UHGV virus genome: UHGV-0175179
Reading direction: 5' to 3' (one strand)
Length of the DNA: 29,565 bases
Source of the DNA: a virus
A program made the position numbers and the translations under genes. The notes below the pieces were generated by a model. The model saw only the letters and a list, made by a program, of their open reading frames with translations, ran no database searches and was not told the origin of the DNA. Below, one piece after another: positions 2,853 through 26,300 of the stretch (its first letter is position 1; every line of letters begins with the position of its first letter).

Positions 2853-3836
2853 ATGATTCGATCTCTCGTTAAATGGCCCGGTGGTAAAGGCCGCGTTATG
2901 CCTGATTTGCTGCCGATTCTGCCGAAAGCCGATTGCCTGGTGGAACCGTTTGTCGGCGGTGCTTCTGTTTTCCTCAATACTGAATATCGCCGTTATATCC
3001 TGGGTGATATAAACCCAGATTTAATTAACCTGTATCGCCAGATAGCCCGCTGGCCTGATGTGGTGATCGACGCTGCTCGCCCGCTGTTTAAAGTGTACGG
3101 TGATAAAGACGGCTATAAGTGGATCCGCGACGATTTCAACGCTCGCGCCCATGACCTTCTTTCATCGCGCAATGTGTTTGAGGACGGACCGGACGCGGGC
3201 AAGATTCTTCGTGCAGCACAGTTTCTTTACCTGAACCGTCACGGATATAACGGCGTAGTGCGCTACAACCAACAGGGCGGATATAACGTTCCCTTTGGTA
3301 GACACAAAACCCCGCCTTACTTCCCGGAAGAACAGATCCGTTTATTCTCTGAAAAAGCTAACGACACGAAAGCTATTTTCGTGTGCTGCGATTTCCAGAG
3401 CACGTTAAAAATCACGATTGGTAGTGACGCGGTTATCTACTGCGATCCGCCATACCTGCCAACAAGCGAAACCGCTAATTTCACCCAATACCACACCGCC
3501 CCGTTTGGGATTAAAGAGCATCGCCAGTTAGCTGCCGCCCTGCTGGATATTAACCGCCTTACTGGTTCGCCGGTGATCCTGTCCAACAGCGACACCCCTG
3601 CTACCCGCGAGATTTATCACACTTTCAACTTCCAGGAAATCAGCGTTAACCGTTCTGTCAGCGCGAACGCCATTACCAGAGGGGTCGCCAGTGAAGTGAT
3701 TGGCGTCCTGAAAGTGTGCAGCGGCTGCGGTCGTGCCGATGGTGGCCGTTGTCCTGACTGCGGCCCGGTAATGGGTGACGCGACCTACAACGAAATGCTG
3801 GCATCGGCTGCGGCCAATGGCGTGGAGGCTTTTTAA
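2853..3836 (+). CDS. dam: DNA adenine methyltransferase, Dam family, with a C-terminal Cys4 zinc-ribbon extension
   Basis: KWPGGK and LVEPFVGGASVFLNTEYRRYILGDINPDLINLY are near-identical in pattern to E. coli Dam (KWAGGK, LVEPFVGAGSVFLNTDF..YILADINSDLISLY). DPPY catalytic motif present (IYCDPPYLPT). The C-terminal ~45 aa add CSGCGRADGGRCPDCG. GGAGA RBS 8 nt upstream. Confidence 0.9.
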   Translation: MIRSLVKWPGGKGRVMPDLLPILPKADCLVEPFVGGASVFLNTEYRRYILGDINPDLINLYRQIARWPDVVIDAARPLFKVYGDKDGYKWIRDDFNARAHDLLSSRNVFEDGPDAGKILRAAQFLYLNRHGYNGVVRYNQQGGYNVPFGRHKTPPYFPEEQIRLFSEKANDTKAIFVCCDFQSTLKITIGSDAVIYCDPPYLPTSETANFTQYHTAPFGIKEHRQLAAALLDINRLTGSPVILSNSDTPATREIYHTFNFQEISVNRSVSANAITRGVASEVIGVLKVCSGCGRADGGRCPDCGPVMGDATYNEMLASAAANGVEAF

Positions 3837-4038: not shown

Positions 4039-5049
4039 GTGGGTGCTTTGGCTTACTACAACGAAATCGATCCATATGCAGCACAGTGGCTGCGCAACCT
4101 CATTGATGCCGGGCATATTGCGCCAGGCATTGTTGATACCCGTTCAATTGAGGATGTAACCCCCAATGACCTTAAAGGCTTTACTCAATGTCACTTCTTT
4201 GCCGGGATCGGTGTGTGGTCATATGCCCTGCGTCTTGTGGGCTGGCCGGACGACAAACCGATCTGGACTGGATCCTGCCCATGCCAGCCTTTCAGCCCGG
4301 CAGGCAAAGCAACTGGGTTTGATGACGAGCGGCACTTATGGCCCGCCTTTCATTGGCTCATTGCTCAGTGCCGCCCTGTCGTTGTCGCTGGCGAGCAATC
4401 TGGAAGCGCTAACGCGAACGTCTGGCTCGACCTTGTACAAACTGACATGGAAAGCCTGGGCTATGCCTTCGGGGCGGTCGCGTTTCCGTCTGCGAGCGTC
4501 GGTGCGCCACACATCCGGGACAGAGCTTACTGGGTGGCCGACACCAACGGCGAGCGCATGGAAACACCCTGGAAATCAGGGGAGGCAGGGAGGCTTGAAT
4601 TTGCAAACGGCCACAGCATTAGCTGGGTGGCCGACACCAACAACACAGAGCAACAACCAAATCTCAGGAGTTGGAGCGGCTGCAGATCACCCGAAGCGCG
4701 GGACAACTTTGGGCGGGGCTGCTCAGCTGTCGGGGTGGCCGACACCAGCTTCAAGGGACGGCAAGGGGGGGTATCAGGGCGGGAGGATGCGCAACGGGAA
4801 GCTGTCGACGGACACGCTGGATGTGACGGCGCAAATTGCGGGACCGGTCCGGTTAACGGTTTCTGGCGATCTGCTGACTGGCTGTATTGCCGGGATGGAA
4901 ACTGGAGGCCAGTTAAACCCGGACTTAAGCCGCTGGTTGATGGGGTTACCGGACGAGTGGGAAAAATCCGCGCCTACGGAAACGCTATCAACGTTGAAGC
5001 TGCAACAGCGTTCATAAAGGCTTATATGATGGGGGCGTCAAATGTCTGA
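4039..5049 (+). CDS. DNA cytosine-5 methyltransferase, phage orphan Dcm-like (GTG start); reading frame integrity uncertain
   Basis: Motif I-like FAGIGVW, motif IV PCQPFSPAG, motif VIII-like APHIRDRAYWVA and motif X-like RAYGNAINVEAATAFIKAY in this frame. GGGAGG 7 nt upstream of the GTG. The stop overlaps the gpA start. Confidence 0.8.
   Translation: MGALAYYNEIDPYAAQWLRNLIDAGHIAPGIVDTRSIEDVTPNDLKGFTQCHFFAGIGVWSYALRLVGWPDDKPIWTGSCPCQPFSPAGKATGFDDERHLWPAFHWLIAQCRPVVVAGEQSGSANANVWLDLVQTDMESLGYAFGAVAFPSASVGAPHIRDRAYWVADTNGERMETPWKSGEAGRLEFANGHSISWVADTNNTEQQPNLRSWSGCRSPEARDNFGRGCSAVGVADTSFKGRQGGVSGREDAQREAVDGHAGCDGANCGTGPVNGFWRSADWLYCRDGNWRPVKPGLKPLVDGVTGRVGKIRAYGNAINVEAATAFIKAYMMGASNV
4531..4749 (+). 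repeat. Three direct copies of a ~15-bp motif GGGTGGCCGACACCA inside the Dcm-like gene
   Basis: Copies at 4531-4548, 4623-4641 and 4732-4749, read directly from the sequence. They encode WVADTN / WVADTN / GVADTS in the gene frame and GWPTP three times in the overlapping frame. Confidence 0.8.
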
Positions 5050-7660: not shown

Positions 7661-7662
7661 GC

Positions 7663-7878
7663 ATGAAAATTATTATTGGACATAAGAAGCAAAATAATCA
7701 GTTAGATGTAGTTGTAAGTGCCTGGTGTTGGGAAATAGAGCAACTCAATAAGCTGACAAAAGAAGTGATCCGGGTGTTTTTTGTGGAGGGGGAAGCAACG
7801 TGCGTGCCGTCGTCATTTCTTCTGCGTCGTAAATACAAGGTAAGCGGGCCGGAAAGTTCTAAATCTTCCACCAGATAA
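7663..7878 (+). CDS. Hypothetical small protein (71 aa) in an AT-rich islet
   Basis: ATG at 7663 with AGGGG 5 nt upstream. Markedly lower G+C than the flanking phage genes (by eye). Followed by a terminator-like hairpin. Confidence 0.35.
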   Translation: MKIIIGHKKQNNQLDVVVSAWCWEIEQLNKLTKEVIRVFFVEGEATCVPSSFLLRRKYKVSGPESSKSSTR

Positions 7879-7892
7879 AACAGTCAATCGCG

Positions 7893-7925
7893 AAAACCTG
7901 CGTTACTTGTTGCGCGGGTTTTCAC
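7893..7925 (+). terminator. Putative intrinsic terminator of the early operon
   Basis: Stem CCTGCG (7897-7902) pairs with CGCGGG (7913-7918) around a 10-nt loop, followed by TTTT (7919-7922). Sits 15 nt after the stop of the 7663 ORF. Confidence 0.35.
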
Positions 7926-7989
7926 GATTCTGCGGGTGCGGGCGGCAAAGAGTCCGCATGTTTTGATTCTAAAAGTGAGATAAGAAAAA

Positions 7990-8205
7990 ATGAAAGCGAG
8001 TTATATCAGTTACTTTGAAGGTTACGATGCAATTGGCCGAATGATTTTTAATGGCAATGGTTCATGTTCGGTTGAATACGACGAGACTGAGGGAATCGAT
8101 CCTGAAGGGTTGCAGGTCGCGCATTGTGAGCATCTTTTAAAGGTGGCCCAGGCCAAAAATACCAGTGTCGTGAGAGTCACGATTAATAACATGATGAAAC
8201 TGTAA
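7990..8205 (+). CDS. Hypothetical small protein (71 aa) in an AT-rich islet
   Basis: ORF with ATG at 7990 and a weak RBS. Low G+C. Convergent with the ogr-like gene and separated from it by a hairpin terminator. Confidence 0.3.
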   Translation: MKASYISYFEGYDAIGRMIFNGNGSCSVEYDETEGIDPEGLQVAHCEHLLKVAQAKNTSVVRVTINNMMKL

Positions 8206-8221
8206 TTGTTATCAATTCCAA

Positions 8222-8253
8222 TAGTTAAAAAGCCCGCTTTATGCGGGCTTCGT
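8222..8253 (-). terminator. Rho-independent terminator, mainly for the leftward P-Q-ogr transcript (bidirectional hairpin)
   Basis: AGCCCGC / GCGGGCT stem with a 5-nt loop (8231-8249). On the minus strand it is followed by TTTTT; on the plus strand by a weaker T-rich tail. Confidence 0.5.
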
Positions 8254-8580
8254 TTATGCTGTCTGGCCGTTGAGCAGGTCCAGCGCGAATTGACGTTCTT
8301 CCGGCTTGAGCCGGTCAATCAGGAATTTAACCAGCTTGTTACCGGTCAGCCCGCTGGGGCTGAGAGTATGTGAAAACTGGGCGTTAAAAACAAAGGTATG
8401 GCCGCATTCAACTTCCGTGCAGGCGCAGTACAAATCAGCCAGTTTTTTGTCTTTCCAGTCAGATTTACGAATGATGGCCGGTGAGCCGCATTCAGGACAT
8501 TTAATTTTAAAAACTCGCATGTTCACCATCCCGCACGCCATTGCTAACAATGGGGATGATTTTAACTTAATTGCGCTCAT
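8254..8580 (-). CDS. ogr: Ogr/Delta-family zinc-finger late transcription activator (possible shorter form starting at 8520)
   Basis: CPECG...LYCACTEVECGHTFVF matches the Ogr/Delta C4 zinc-finger pattern (P2 Ogr CPLC...YHQCQNVNCSATFIT). The ATG at 8580 overlaps the portal stop (ATGA); an internal ATG at 8520 would give an Ogr-sized 89-aa product. Confidence 0.75.
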   Translation of the reverse strand: MSAIKLKSSPLLAMACGMVNMRVFKIKCPECGSPAIIRKSDWKDKKLADLYCACTEVECGHTFVFNAQFSHTLSPSGLTGNKLVKFLIDRLKPEERQFALDLLNGQTA

Positions 8581-9638
8581 TTTTCGCCCTTTTCGGCGGT
8601 GATTGCCGGGATATCCACGTCAAAAACCAGGTGCAAGTGTGCGGGGATCTCCGGGTCATTGTTGACGCCGTTCATTAGCTTGCGCTGCAACGGGATAACT
8701 TCATCCTTGCGATAGGTTGTGCGGGCGGTTTCAGGGTTGCCCATTACCGCGCCGTTGGTCGGGATGATACCCGCCAGGCCAGCGGGAAAACGGTGGGCGG
8801 TAAAGATATCCTGTGCGGTGATCCCTTTGATGTTGGCGAATTCATCCTTTGCGCTGACTTCGCCCACTGGCATGATTTTAACCCCTTCCGGGTCGCCCTT
8901 CGGGATGTTGATAAACATATTGCGGAAGTTACCCAGCCCTTTGGACTGGGCGATCTTCTCTTTGATTTCGTTTTCCATTTCCAGCGTGAGATTGGGATCG
9001 CTGGTATAGAGAATAAAGCCCATGTGCGCCCCGTTATTGTAGTAACGGCGGCGGAAAATGGTTGCCTCACTGTTGAGTAACACCGAATGGATGCCGCCGA
9101 TATAGTCAGGCAGGCCATATACCTGCTGGCGCGGGTCGTACATTTTAAAGAAAACGATGTCTTCCGGGTCATAGATAAGCGCTGGCCCTTCCTGCAGAAC
9201 AGCAAACGAGCCGTCTTTCCGGCAGCGCAGATACAGCGACGGCAGCGGCAGCAGGTCGATCACTTCCCCGAATACGTTACGAATTTTCAGGATAGCGACG
9301 TCACCAAACAGCAGGTAATCAAAGACAGCCTGTTCGACCTGGTCAGGCGTCAGGCCGCCGCCAATATAGCCACCGGCCACCATATTGCGCCGCGCATACA
9401 GCACCCCACCATGCTGGCCGTTAAGGTTCGGCAACTGGGCCAGCGCCAGGCGATCAATCGGGAGTCGCCAGTGGTCATATTCATTGTCATACCAGATATT
9501 GTGATAATCCGTGCCGGTCGTCAGGATGGGTTCGGGTTCGCCAAATGTGATCACGCTTCCGCGCCCTGGCGTGAAGGTTTCAACCTTGCTGCCGGTCATG
9601 GACCTGAATTTTTTATTATTACGCTGTTTCTTTGTCAT
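8577..9638 (-). CDS. Q: Portal protein, P2 gpQ-like
   Basis: 353 aa. Lies immediately downstream of the large terminase gene on the same strand with an ATGA overlap, as in P2 (P then Q). Size and sequence character match gpQ. Confidence 0.8.
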   Translation of the reverse strand: MTKKQRNNKKFRSMTGSKVETFTPGRGSVITFGEPEPILTTGTDYHNIWYDNEYDHWRLPIDRLALAQLPNLNGQHGGVLYARRNMVAGGYIGGGLTPDQVEQAVFDYLLFGDVAILKIRNVFGEVIDLLPLPSLYLRCRKDGSFAVLQEGPALIYDPEDIVFFKMYDPRQQVYGLPDYIGGIHSVLLNSEATIFRRRYYNNGAHMGFILYTSDPNLTLEMENEIKEKIAQSKGLGNFRNMFINIPKGDPEGVKIMPVGEVSAKDEFANIKGITAQDIFTAHRFPAGLAGIIPTNGAVMGNPETARTTYRKDEVIPLQRKLMNGVNNDPEIPAHLHLVFDVDIPAITAEKGEK

Positions 9639-11446
9639 GCTGCTTTCCCAAAGTACCAGCCCGATGGGCGGTCATATTCGTGATCGATAGGTTCGTTAAT
9701 TACGGCGTGCGAAATGGCGAAGAAAACATCTGCATGGCCGGTCGCATCAGAGCGTTCGGCAACAAACGTCAGCGCGTTGCCGCTGTTGGTTGTCGTGCGC
9801 CGGATAGCCATAAAGCTGGCCGGAATTTCGACACGCTCCTTGTTCGTTTCGTCTACGGCGTCTTTTGCCCATTCGATGCGCTTACGCTCGACAACGTCGA
9901 TCATCTTCATTACCAGACGGTTTTTGCTTTCGACGCTGTAAAGAATCGGTGTGGCTTCGCGTGGAGCAAACTTGCTGACCAGGTCATAAACGCCTTTACC
10001 AATGCCGGTTGTATCGATCCCGATGTAAGTGATGTTAAAGCGGCGCATAAGCTGCTTTATCTGGTCAGCCTGCCAGCTAAAGTTAAAGCCCTGCCATTGC
10101 CAGACGGCCAGCACGCGGAAGCGCTCGCCGTCCTCTATGGGGGGCGCGATTAACACAAAGGTGGAGTTGTCGCCGGATCGCGATGGGTCAAAGCCTGCCC
10201 ATACTTCGCGATTGCCGAAGGGTCGTGCAGCGGTTAGATCAAAGTCGCCCCATGTGGCTCGGTCCACTTCGCAGCCGACAAGCGCGGAGAACTTGAAAAC
10301 CGCGTCCTTACTGTCAACAAACTGGCACATGTAGAGCATGGCAAACGCGGTCGGGCTGTATTTGTTGCGCAGCCGTTCAATATCGACAAGCGCCCCGAGG
10401 CCGCCTTCGATAGCGTCTTCCATCGTGATGATGTAGCGCCAGATCTGGTCCGGGCAAAGAATGCCATGGCGCATTTCGCTTTCTTTCGGAAACGCCACAC
10501 CTTTGCGTTTCGGGTCGTCCCCGCGCCAGGCTTCGCCAGTCCAGACCGGGTAAGCCTGGTGCGTTTTCGCGCTGGGCGTCGAAAAGTAGGTCGTGCGGTA
10601 TTTGTTATGCGTTGCCATTGCGCTGGCAACTTCATGCAGGCGCGTGAATTTCGGGATCCAGAAAACCTCATCACCATACAGGTGGCCGTTAAAGCCCTGC
10701 GCGGTGCTGGCGTTCGTGGACAAAAAGCGCAGTATTGCGCCGTTGCTGAGGCGGATATTTTTACCCGTCAGCGTCACGCCGAAATGGTTCTGAGCGATCT
10801 GGACGATGTATTCACGGAAGATTTCAGACTGGGAGCGGCTTGCAGAGAAAAAGACCTGGTTATCACCGGTAATGACAGCATCTTCGAATGCCTCCCAGGC
10901 GAAATAATAGGTCATGCCTACCTGTCGGCTTTTCAGAATGAAACGCCAGTCTTCGCCTTTATGTTCGCGGCAGTGCAGCTGGTACTCGAAGAGATGTTCC
11001 CGCGCCCAGGTGTCGAGCATTTCCGCTGTAATACCGGAAACGTCGTTTTTCTTATACCGGCGCTTTCTTTCCCCAGGTTCCCCGCCTGCGCTGCTGAGGC
11101 AGTACCCTTCATCATCATAAGCCGCTTTCTGGGCCTGAATTTCTGCCAGCTTTTCGGCGTGCTTGTTGCGCTGCGCCATGAGTTTTACATGGTGAGCAAT
11201 CAGATCGCGCAGTTCTTCCAGTTCCAGCGCTGTTTTTTTCTCGCGGCGGGAGAGCTGGTCGATACGGCGGGCGATGACATTTTCCACCGATTCAACAGGC
11301 AGCAGTGATGCCCACTTCCCGACGTCAGCCCAGTGGTAAATTGTACGCGGTGGAATATTCAGTTCCTGCGCAATATCTTTCGGCGTCCAGCTTTTTATAT
11401 AAAGCGTGCGGGCCGCTTCTTTTAATTCATCGGAATATTTAGCCAT
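9635..11446 (-). CDS. P: Terminase large (ATPase) subunit, P2 gpP-like
   Basis: 603 aa. Walker A-like segment (LKSRQVGMTYYFAWEA region) and nuclease-domain character. Divergently arranged against the scaffold gene, as P2 P/O. Confidence 0.85.
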   Translation of the reverse strand: MAKYSDELKEAARTLYIKSWTPKDIAQELNIPPRTIYHWADVGKWASLLPVESVENVIARRIDQLSRREKKTALELEELRDLIAHHVKLMAQRNKHAEKLAEIQAQKAAYDDEGYCLSSAGGEPGERKRRYKKNDVSGITAEMLDTWAREHLFEYQLHCREHKGEDWRFILKSRQVGMTYYFAWEAFEDAVITGDNQVFFSASRSQSEIFREYIVQIAQNHFGVTLTGKNIRLSNGAILRFLSTNASTAQGFNGHLYGDEVFWIPKFTRLHEVASAMATHNKYRTTYFSTPSAKTHQAYPVWTGEAWRGDDPKRKGVAFPKESEMRHGILCPDQIWRYIITMEDAIEGGLGALVDIERLRNKYSPTAFAMLYMCQFVDSKDAVFKFSALVGCEVDRATWGDFDLTAARPFGNREVWAGFDPSRSGDNSTFVLIAPPIEDGERFRVLAVWQWQGFNFSWQADQIKQLMRRFNITYIGIDTTGIGKGVYDLVSKFAPREATPILYSVESKNRLVMKMIDVVERKRIEWAKDAVDETNKERVEIPASFMAIRRTTTNSGNALTFVAERSDATGHADVFFAISHAVINEPIDHEYDRPSGWYFGKAA

Positions 11447-11623
11447 GCGGCTATTATGGCGGGATTATTTTGCATAATTGATAATTAAATATCGGTAAAA
11501 AGTGGCTATGTATTTATAACCGAATGCATAAGAAATAAAGCGGTCGCGCTGTTTTAACCAATTCGCAATACTGACCACCACGAACGAATCATTGTTATTT
11601 AATTTCATTATTAAAGGTCAGTT
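11447..11623. promoter_or_regulatory. Divergent late promoter region between terminase (P) and scaffold (O) genes
   Basis: 177-bp AT-rich intergenic region between divergent late operons, as PP/PO in P2. Contains repeated TGCATAA motifs and a TTATG-N14-CATAA dyad. Confidence 0.4.
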
Positions 11624-23586: not shown

Positions 23587-25134
23587 ATGTCACAGGCCGT
23601 TATTACAAAAGTATTTTCAGAATGGAAAGCCCGGCAGGCAATTGATAATCAGCCCGTCACGCTGGATGAATTTATTTTCGCTTATATTCCGGGGCTGGAT
23701 ACTGATAAGCCGATTGATAATACCGAGACAATACCCACAGCGGATAAAATTGTTGATCGCCTGCCGGTAAGTAAAACCGGCGTTGTGAATGAAAATTCTG
23801 TCGTTTATTCCGTCACTCTGGGTGCGGATGTGGGCGATTATGATTTCAACTGGATCGGACTGGCAAATAAAGCCACCGGTACACTGGCGATGATTATTCA
23901 CGCCCCGACCCAGCGCAAAATCAAAAATACGAACGGCCAGCAGGGAAACGTGCTGGTTCGTTCCATGCTGATGGAATACAGCGGAGCCAGGGAAGCAACA
24001 GAAATTACCACCCCGGCAGAGACATGGCAGATTGATTTTACTGCCCGCCTGGCGGCAATGGATGAGCGCCAGCGCCGCGAAAATATCGATCTGTATGGCG
24101 CAGCGGCATTTTTTGATTCGGGTTACCTGGTCGCAAAGTCCGGCAATCAGTTTTTTGTCACAAAGGGGGCGGGATACGTTGCCGGGTTGCGTGCTGAGCT
24201 GCCCGCAGACCTGAACATCACCGCATCCGCCAGGCCAACAAAGGTCTGGCTTGATGTCTGCTGGACAGGGACGTTAACGAGTGAATGGGCAGTACAGAGC
24301 AACATTACCGTTGCGGCAGATCTTGCCGATTATGTGCTGGGCGGAGTGCAGCATTATGTCTTTGCACTCGCCAGTATTGATGCCGCTGGCAATATCACAG
24401 ATTTACGCCCGAAAGGCACGCTGAATGACCAGGCGGCCAGCGATGCGCTAAAAAAGCATGAGCAATCCAGAAATCATCCTGATGCATCAACCAGCGAAAA
24501 AGGTTTTGTACAGTTAAGCAGTGCAACGGACAGCGATTCCGAAAAACTGGCCGCAACGCCCGCAGCGGTTAAGCAGGTTAACGAGAACGCCAATAAAAGA
24601 CAGCTGGCGAACCCCCTGTTAACTGCGCTTGCCGATCTTGTCACGAAAAAGGACATGTTTCCGTGGTTTACCGGGAAAAATACGGTTGCCATGAGCGCTT
24701 TGACAGAGTTTGCGCGTGAATTGCTAAGTAAAGGGGATGTGGCATCCGTTCTCAGGCATCTGACGCTGGGAGATGCTGCAACAAAAGATGTTGGTGTCAT
24801 GCCAGGACAGGTATTACCCGCCGCCGCTTTTACCGCGCATCTGTCTGGCTCGGGAATGTGTAAGTTTCCTGTGCAGGCAACATCCGGGGCGGTTATTAAT
24901 CTGATTTTTATGTGGGGTGTCACCAGTACCCCGCCAGGATCGTCAGGTGGTTACAATTTCCACACGGCATTTCCTTATGCCTGCCTGATGGCGATGGGGT
25001 GTCGCGGGGCAGATGGTACGAATGCCAGCATGAACGTCAGGGCGCATAACAACACAACAATGATTATTCAGAACTGGGCGCCAGTGGGTTCCGGTTACTG
25101 GGAAGAATGCATCTGGTTTGCAATTGGTTACTGA
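23587..25134 (+). CDS. Tail fibre protein
   Basis: 515 aa. Contains the conserved fibre motif HPDASTSEKGFVQLSSATDSDSEKLAATPAAVKQV. Followed by a tail fibre assembly gene. G+C lower than the surrounding tail genes. Confidence 0.8.
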   Translation: MSQAVITKVFSEWKARQAIDNQPVTLDEFIFAYIPGLDTDKPIDNTETIPTADKIVDRLPVSKTGVVNENSVVYSVTLGADVGDYDFNWIGLANKATGTLAMIIHAPTQRKIKNTNGQQGNVLVRSMLMEYSGAREATEITTPAETWQIDFTARLAAMDERQRRENIDLYGAAAFFDSGYLVAKSGNQFFVTKGAGYVAGLRAELPADLNITASARPTKVWLDVCWTGTLTSEWAVQSNITVAADLADYVLGGVQHYVFALASIDAAGNITDLRPKGTLNDQAASDALKKHEQSRNHPDASTSEKGFVQLSSATDSDSEKLAATPAAVKQVNENANKRQLANPLLTALADLVTKKDMFPWFTGKNTVAMSALTEFARELLSKGDVASVLRHLTLGDAATKDVGVMPGQVLPAAAFTAHLSGSGMCKFPVQATSGAVINLIFMWGVTSTPPGSSGGYNFHTAFPYACLMAMGCRGADGTNASMNVRAHNNTTMIIQNWAPVGSGYWEECIWFAIGY

Positions 25135-25582: not shown

Positions 25583-26300
25583 TTCAGTTATTAAAATTGC
25601 CGATGATATGTCGGCTTTATCCTGCTCAGTTATTCCGGCGCATCCCTGGGTTTACGGTCTGGGACAGAACACCGATTCAGGCGGTTATCTCAGTCCGGCC
25701 AATGCGCTGGGATACCTTGCTAAAAAGCTGTTATCCGGTGGCGGTAGCGGTAGCGGTGATGTCATCGTCATGATGGTGGCGGAAAATACCCACGACGCTT
25801 TTATGCAGGGACTGAATAAACTGTCCACCGTATTTCCGGCCCCGGTATTTACGCAGGTAAGCCGTATGGCCGCAGCCGCCGCAGAACTCAGCACGGTAAA
25901 AATGCAGTTGCCGGTTAAAGCCGATGTATTGCCAGCCAGTACGCCGTTATCAGTCTCAACCAACCGGCTGGCGCTGAATGCCCAGCGTGTTGCCGCCGCG
26001 CAGCTGGCCGCCGCAGTCAGTACCACCACAACAGATCTAAAAAACCAGGTGACGGGATTTATTCAGGAGCGGGCCGGTTTGCTGGCCTCACTCAGCCAGG
26101 GACTGGATGAACTGAAAGCCGCCAGCGCGAATATTTTTTCATTCAGCTACAGCGGGAATTATGCCGTTGCCGCCGCTGAATTACTGAAAGGCATCCCGCA
26201 AACAACGGCAGTGCATACCGCCGCGATGATGTTTATCGGGGATTCGTTATCTGACTTAGGGAAGATGCTACATGAGCCAGACCGCACTACTCGCGCTTGA
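25572..26300 (+). CDS. Hypothetical protein (242 aa); tail-associated or cargo
   Basis: ATG at 25572 with GAAGG RBS, overlapping the Tfa stop. Gly/Ser linker GGGSGSG and an Ala-rich helical C-terminal half. No motif recognised. Confidence 0.4.
   Translation: MWRNSVIKIADDMSALSCSVIPAHPWVYGLGQNTDSGGYLSPANALGYLAKKLLSGGGSGSGDVIVMMVAENTHDAFMQGLNKLSTVFPAPVFTQVSRMAAAAAELSTVKMQLPVKADVLPASTPLSVSTNRLALNAQRVAAAQLAAAVSTTTTDLKNQVTGFIQERAGLLASLSQGLDELKAASANIFSFSYSGNYAVAAAELLKGIPQTTAVHTAAMMFIGDSLSDLGKMLHEPDRTTRA

Follow-up and report, generated by a model that had tools for sequence, protein, structure and literature searches.

A post-portal Ogr/Delta-type zinc-finger gene in an SI7-like P2-like prophage: start codon, predicted promoter and a candidate late operator

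In phage P2, the late activator Ogr acts through the α subunit of RNA polymerase, and read-through from the F operon into ogr gives positive feedback. P2 Ogr (72 aa), 186 B, PSP3 Pag and P4 Delta are small proteins with a finger near the N-terminus that fall into one Pfam family and have the same Cys spacing. The zinc ligands of these Ogr/Delta late activators are arranged as C-X2-C-X22-C-X4-C, and the late promoters of P2-type phages carry a TGT-N12-ACA dyad near −55 (PMC3931495). According to the P2 record, ogr occupies 24036–24254, between D and attP; its promoter, right after the D stop, consists of a −35 that begins TTG (TTGTTT), a 17-nt spacer and the −10 TAAAAT, which lies 34 nt before the ogr ATG, and one terminator is given “for ogr transcript and F operon”. 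In that record, the Q terminator and cos occupy the slot that follows the portal gene Q.

Other P2-like phages carry the gene elsewhere. The ogr homologue of K139 is flanked by the genes for the portal protein and for the replication endonuclease; Smhb1 has its homologue in the same position (PMC8537503, 2021). In the Burkholderia phages KS5 and KL3, ogr is found in the early region, among small leftward genes beside the repressor; these too are P2-like phages whose Ogr/Delta activator is placed unlike that of P2, but next to the repressor rather than after the portal gene (PMC3091744). Since P2, the phages with a post-portal gene and KS5/KL3 all differ in this respect, the position of ogr varies across the Peduoviridae.

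The DNA analyzed here, referred to below as the window, is a stretch of 29,565 nt from virus genome UHGV-0175179. By sequence similarity it is an Irrigatiovirus SI7-like P2-like prophage: positions 1–25000 matched Salmonella phage SI7 (Peduoviridae, Irrigatiovirus) with 93% identity over 87% of the 25-kb query, with further matches to SW3 and SW5. Domains of P2-like gpA, gpQ, gpP, gpO and a P2-type capsid protein define a P2-type head module together with an A-type replication gene. The leftward late operon is led by the gpP-like terminase large subunit (9635–11446, minus strand; PF03237, PF17289, PF06056), followed by the gpQ-like portal gene (8577–9638, minus strand; PF04860) and an Ogr-like gene, toward which replication gene A (PF05840) is transcribed from the opposite side. 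Direct reading and a stem scan located an intrinsic terminator at 8227–8250 on the minus strand, with an 8-bp GC-rich stem, a 5-nt loop and a T run. This strong terminator is predicted to end the P-Q operon as well as the ogr transcript and to be bidirectional, facing the convergent ORF at 7990–8205.

Several features of this neighborhood deserve mention. Between replication gene A and the ogr terminator lies a variable slot (7661–8253) that matches by position the old/tin accessory-gene slot of P2; it holds the 71-aa ORF at 7990–8205 (plus strand), which has no match in Pfam, NCBIfam or PHROG, and the equivalent slot in SW3 contains a DNA methylase and a hypothetical gene. Two DNA methyltransferase genes, of the D12-class N6-adenine and C5-cytosine types, are found in the early operon just ahead of gene A, at 2853–3836 and 4039–5049 (both plus strand). 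A G-rich stretch, GCGGGTGCGGGCGGCAAAGAG, at about 7925–7960 bears a loose likeness to the P2 cos core GGCGAGGCGGGGAAAGCAC (approximately 11 of 19 positions by eye) and shows no megablast-level conservation in SW3.

The Ogr-like ORF spans 8254–8580 on the minus strand and comprises 108 codons (108 aa), ending in the TAA at 8256–8254. The portal gene ends GGC GAA AAA TGA and the ORF starts ATG AGC GCA on the same strand, so that the portal TGA and the ORF's ATG overlap by 4 nt in the ATGA at 8580–8577. These coordinates, the overlap and an inner ATG at 8520 were all read correctly in the preliminary description of the sequence, whose assignment of the protein to the Ogr/Delta family is borne out as well. 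The Pfam profile Ogr_Delta (PF04606) matches with 62.9 bits (E = 2.6e-17; curated cut-off 26.3 bits), residues 27–73 covering profile positions 1–47 of 47, and the Cys residues 28, 31, 54 and 59 of the 108-aa ORF reproduce the zinc-ligand spacing exactly (CPEC-x22-C-TEVE-C). That description had also named, as what would overturn the assignment, an alignment at odds with the family; in an alignment with the K139, HP2, phiO18P, ESSI-2 and P2 proteins, P2 Ogr included, the four Cys are invariant. No other ORF in the window has Ogr-type Cys spacing, and no second ogr-like gene occurs at the prophage end of the window, the position that the gene has in P2.

Within the family, the protein is no equivalog of P2 Ogr by sequence. 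The corresponding NCBIfam model (NF007241 / PRK09678) scores 19.8 bits, below its cut-off of 116; identity to P2 Ogr is 25%, and the P2 protein lacks about 35 aa that form an extra C-terminal region here. It matches instead PHROG 603 “transcriptional regulator” (E = 6.6e-42), and on sequence criteria it belongs to the K139 Orf13 or HP1-type subfamily of Ogr-like proteins, which also includes those of HP1/HP2, phiO18P, ESSI-2, SI7/SW3/SW5 and YenM_324. Identity is 47–58% to the K139, phiO18P and ESSI-2 proteins and 99% to that of SI7, and the window protein shares with the K139 Orf13 relatives the motifs CGHTFV and SHTLSPS and a helix-like C-terminal tail. No solved structure was found for any relative of the protein.

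The gene order of this branch is also shared. Terminase, portal, Ogr-like gene and convergent replication genes follow one another in SW3/SI7, ESSI-2, K139, HP2, phiO18P, Pseudomonas phi3, Pasteurella Pmp6 and Yersinia YenM_324, a count over seven named genera plus the Pasteurella phage. Among 159 related loci, chosen by similarity and thus a biased sample, a portal homologue and the finger lie on the same strand in 154, and in 151 the distance from the end of the portal gene to the first Cys codon is 58–102 nt. K139 differs in detail, as a small orf14 separates the portal gene from orf13. By these sequence comparisons, the K139/HP1/ESSI-2/SI7 branch of the Peduoviridae has post-portal placement as its standard layout, one that is common and has been described before. 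The contrast drawn in the preliminary description between this locus and P2 is correct, as P2 ogr sits next to attP, follows the F-E-T-U-D operon and is absent from the post-portal slot, while the window gene follows the P-Q operon and neighbors the replication module. The description of the gene as “fused” in position to the portal gene overstates the arrangement, as a conserved promoter-like −10 separates the portal stop from the finger, and the comparison of placement across P2-like genomes shows the post-portal position to recur so widely that it is the norm of the branch and no peculiarity. In the records of HP2 (3501–3755 of our locus L077), Pseudomonas phi3 (2501–2734 of L158) and Pasteurella Pmp6 (2501–2785 of L159), the Ogr-like ORF after the portal gene carries no annotation.

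The gene and its layout are in fact already annotated and described, and there is little new biology in either. The SW3 and SI7 records annotate the same 108-aa ORF as a “transcriptional regulator” directly after the portal gene, the long form with the upstream start thus being the one given in GenBank phage records. Identical protein appears in public databases under four starts, giving 108, 95, 91 and 88 aa: the 108-aa form on at least 1000 contigs, the 91-aa form, with the RefSeq name “ogr/Delta-like zinc finger family protein”, likewise on at least 1000, the 95-aa form on 8 and the 88-aa form on 5. What can be added concerns the expression of the gene, its start codon and its DNA target.

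We propose the following model, which we consider reasonably probable as a whole: the gene encodes an 88-aa late-gene activator expressed from a weak promoter of its own, directed to a dyad in the late control region and fed back by read-through. The leftward transcript would initiate near 8552 at a weak sigma-70-type promoter made up of GCGAAA (8587–8582), a 17-nt spacer that contains the portal stop, and TAAAAT (8564–8559). Translation would begin at the ATG at 8520 by means of the Shine-Dalgarno sequence GGGATGGTGA. By analogy with P2 Ogr, the 88-aa protein would then bind the dyad at 11492–11523 and activate the divergent late promoters, and the leftward late transcripts, running from P through Q into the gene and stopping at the terminator at 8250–8227, would generate positive feedback. 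The 20 in-frame codons upstream of 8520 would serve mainly as promoter and leader and add no conserved protein extension. What the comparisons show directly is membership of the family, synteny, patterns of substitution and conserved motifs; the binding site, the promoter with its transcript start and the activation itself are inferred.

The case for a separate promoter comes from per-site conservation. The candidate −10, TAAAAT (8559–8564, minus strand), is near-invariant in 56 close relatives and precedes the ATG at 8520 by 38 nt; the weak −35-like GCGAAA (8582–8587, minus strand), 17 nt upstream of it, is embedded in the last portal codons. Conserved blocks comprise AAGGGCGAAAAATGA at 8591–8577, TTAAAAT at 8565–8559, GCGTGCGGG at 8538–8530 and the ATG at 8520, and the most variable part of the region is that between the first two, a variable stretch flanked by conserved blocks as a −35/spacer/−10 arrangement predicts. 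In the last four codons of the portal gene, the synonymous sites show 0, 0, 2 and 0 changes, against approximately 7.6 per third position elsewhere. A −10-like hexamer is present 32–44 nt ahead of the finger-proximal ATG in 14 of 14 lineages, including those in which the intervening sequence is unrelated or not open; it reads TAAAAT in 11 of these, TATGAT in K139, TAAGAT in phiO18P and TATAAT in HP2, and hexamers resembling G[CT]GA[AT]A are found at equal spacing from it in distant lineages. Since a conserved −10 separates the finger from the portal stop, a transcript of the gene's own is probable. A generic promoter scan made no call at this site, which scored below threshold; 8 of 12 consensus positions match, the same number as in the ogr promoter of P2.

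These observations point to a weak promoter straddling the portal stop, with a predicted transcript start near 8552. The −10 is the same hexamer as in the P2 ogr promoter, at 38 nt from the ATG compared with 34 nt in P2, and in both phages the gene stands at the 3' end of a late operon with which it has a common terminator. By analogy, the regulatory design would therefore be that of P2, in which a weak promoter of the gene's own is supplemented by late-operon transcripts that read through to a common terminator. What sets it apart from P2 is the operon that it is tied to, P-Q in place of F-E-T-U-D, and its compression, as the portal stop falls within the promoter spacer. A putative promoter, P13, is annotated for K139 orf13; compared with K139, the putative promoter of the window contains the portal stop and is overlapped by an in-frame ATG.

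A perfect palindrome, CCATTG-N4-CAATGG, occurs at 8538–8553, inside the extension, where the ogr transcript is predicted to begin. It was considered as a repressor operator and as a conserved leader hairpin, and both were rejected: the window, including the repressor/cox intergenic region, holds no second copy, and the palindrome is not kept in relatives and yields no alifold consensus structure. In K139, HP2 and phiO18P, a shared motif, TGTAYAAAAANMCA (a TGT-N8-ACA dyad), is located just upstream of the −10 of the ogr homologue (L002 2942–2955, L077 3462–3475, L078 3429–3442). This motif, absent from all enterobacterial loci compared, may be where a regulator of the ogr promoter acts in the three phages.

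The likely target of the activator was sought in the 177-nt region between the divergent terminase and scaffold genes (P/O region, 11447–11623). TGT-N12-ACA matches the window 7 times, with 5.6 matches expected by chance, and none of these lies in the P/O intergenic region, so that the operator of P2-type phages was not found in the late control region of the window. Phylogenetic footprinting over 24 relatives identified another dyad there, TCGG-N24-CCGA at 11492–11523, which occurs nowhere else in the window as an exact copy and which nearly every close relative shares. HP2 has TTCGGATAT...ATATCCGAA with the same N24 spacing, within a repeat that its record marks as likely late promoters. K139 and phiO18P have TTCGGAT..ATCCGAA with N14 spacing, an arrangement found also in ESSI-2 and in Hafnia, Providencia, Buttiauxella and Citrobacter relatives, and the N14 and N24 spacings are one helical turn apart. 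The TCGG/CCGA dyad thus accompanies the gene order in the P/O control region of the K139 Orf13 group and is absent from the P/O region of P2 itself.

Because the dyad and the protein subfamily occur together, the dyad is the best candidate operator for this branch, and the copy at 11492–11523 is a candidate binding site of the Ogr-like protein; with TGT-N12-ACA missing from the P/O region, it is conservation alone that points to this DNA target. The use of the dyad as a subfamily trait is a feature proposed here and no established criterion. A search for a second operator copy upstream of ogr or in the tail region gave no convincing N24 or N14 dyad, and a near-match at 25893 is coding sequence. 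Since the ogr-like gene has no such copy ahead of it, control of its own promoter through the dyad is improbable. If confirmed as an operator, the dyad would provide a simple marker of late promoters in HP1/K139-type prophages and illustrate how, inside a single zinc-finger family, activator and operator can change in concert.

The P/O region has a further conserved element next to the terminase gene. A CATAAT hexamer is found 6 nt upstream of the terminase ATG (window 11446–11458, minus strand), which has no Shine-Dalgarno match (+1.3 kcal/mol). The arrangement CATAAT(A/T)..ATG recurs in Rahnella, Hafnia, Photorhabdus, ESSI-2 and Citrobacter relatives, and the P2 record gives one and the same coordinate for the start site of the V operon and the V start codon. 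The position of CATAAT next to an ATG that lacks a Shine-Dalgarno sequence suggests that the terminase mRNA is leaderless.

Besides the ATG at 8580, the Ogr-like frame contains in-frame ATGs at 8541 (codon 14), 8529 (codon 18) and 8520–8518 (codon 21), all on the minus strand. Comparative evidence makes 8520 most likely the main start, which gives an 88-aa C4 zinc-finger protein (MRVFKIKCPEC...) encoded by 8254–8520 on the minus strand; the preliminary description had left the choice between this codon and the ATGA-overlapping one at 8580, and it is the latter that loses ground. Members of the family are small proteins of about 70–90 aa with the finger near the N-terminus, a form that the 88-aa reading fits (the first Cys being residue 8) and the 108-aa ORF does not. 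For 56 unique close relatives, substitutions were reconstructed on a neighbor-joining tree. The counts of changes at codon positions 1/2/3 were 161/96/765 in the last 100 portal codons and 108/52/597 in the Ogr core (codons 21–100), as opposed to 50/38/45 in extension codons 2–20, which show no third-position excess (Fisher p = 7e-24 for extension versus core). Third positions of the extension change about threefold more slowly than adjacent synonymous sites (2.4 versus 7.5 changes per site), and rates at its first and second positions are about doubled. Slow third positions combined with fast first and second ones indicate that the 20-codon in-frame extension, MSAIKLKSSPLLAMACGMVN (8521–8580, minus strand), is constrained as nucleotide sequence and not as protein. 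In the ESSI-2 clade, an independent lineage with a different extension, the corresponding counts are 6/7/6 for the extension against 40/13/114 (p = 0.004).

The start codons themselves were also compared. Codon 21 is ATG in 55 of the 56 close relatives and GTG in the remaining one, and the finger-proximal ATG is kept in all distant lineages, including those without an open extension. Codon 14 encodes M, L or I and codon 18 M, V or G among these relatives, and the upstream ATGA is replaced by GTGA or TTGA in relatives L131–L135; in phiO18P and the Providencia relatives, no in-frame start precedes the finger-proximal one. K139 does have an in-frame ATG upstream, but its record starts the gene at the finger-proximal ATG. 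The Shine-Dalgarno region for 8520, GGGATGGTGA (8523–8532, minus strand), forms with the 16S tail a duplex of −7.8 kcal/mol, the best of the four starts and in the top 1% of the window background; the values are −4.4 for 8580, −2.2 for 8529, where the spacing is zero, and +1.3 kcal/mol for 8541. In all lineages a G-rich Shine-Dalgarno sequence precedes the finger-proximal ATG by 8–9 nt. On this comparative evidence, the extension is probably promoter and 5' UTR rather than coding sequence, and its translation on read-through mRNA is possible.

Other readings of the upstream codons differ in how they fare against these data. We are doubtful about, but would tentatively entertain, a compound proposal, namely that the K139/HP1-type branch reads a TTCGG(A/T)-type dyad of 14 or 24 nt spacing instead of the P2 operator and that the gene is expressed in two modes, as an 88-aa protein from the promoter at the portal stop and as a 108-aa isoform made through the ATGA on late read-through mRNA. 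It is unlikely that the 108-aa ORF is the real product, made by portal ribosomes that reinitiate at the ATGA, with no promoter of its own and hence with activator produced only together with the late P-Q operon. The 8580 ATG does have a Shine-Dalgarno sequence, AAGGG at 6-nt spacing, similar to those of the portal and scaffold genes, and both elements are kept even at synonymous portal sites: the third positions G8589 and A8580 of the portal codons that form them are invariant, which the −35 hexamer does not account for. The 108-aa form is, moreover, the annotated CDS of SW3 and SI7 and is seen on at least 1000 contigs, and no stop interrupts the extension in any of the 63 close relatives or in the ESSI-2, Yersinia and Buttiauxella lineages; most lineages combine an open frame with an upstream start. 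This openness was, however, rejected as a sign of translation, as only 1.3 stop-creating changes are expected in the extension and chance alone would give none with a probability of P(0) = 0.26. P2 likewise has an in-frame ATG 12 codons upstream of the annotated ogr start at 24036, overlapping the −10 hexamer, so that an open in-frame leader is no evidence of translation. Production of only the 108-aa form is further opposed by the extension's non-coding substitution pattern in two clades and by the GTG/TTG or missing upstream starts noted above, and an activator made solely from a promoter that needs that activator would have no way to start.

A rather more improbable alternative is that both forms are made, the 88-aa protein early from its own promoter and a 108-aa isoform, possibly of altered activity, by portal coupling on late read-through transcripts. 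Plausible Shine-Dalgarno sequences at both starts agree with this, the conserved blocks fit a promoter and an SD/ATG simultaneously, and codons 6–20 have a low second-position rate (34/13/40) that fits some protein-level constraint; codons 2–5, by contrast, change most at position 2 (16/25/5), there is no sign of selection on the amino acids of the extension, and its sequence differs between lineages and is not conserved. A start at codon 18 (ATG 8529, 91 aa), which RefSeq/PGAP uses in E. coli and Salmonella in a CDS that begins 48 nt past the portal end, and which has the widely distributed 91-aa form and its family name in its favor, is very improbable, because codon 18 is GTT, GTA, GGC or GGT, and no possible start, in 15 of the 56 unique relatives and its Shine-Dalgarno sequence has zero spacing and forms only the weak duplex given above. 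The 88-aa reading is thus the one that comparative evidence favors, although it is the least used of the four public starts, and the practical value of the present analysis lies in this point of annotation.

Altered versions of the locus were also encountered. In one relative (L063 / L122, IMGVR_UViG_3300034161_000028), a deletion has joined the portal ORF and the ogr extension into a single open frame of 463 codons, and a 269-aa E. coli “phage portal protein, partial” falls into the same 90% cluster as the Ogr-like protein (P0014). If such portal-ogr fused elements are functional, their activator must come from the internal ATG. Another contig (L073 / L136, IMGVR_UViG_3300031110_000610) carries a second, degenerate copy of the gene with no portal gene upstream, in which CPEC is changed to RPEC, altering the first zinc ligand, and the C-terminus is truncated; this copy is probably a pseudogene.
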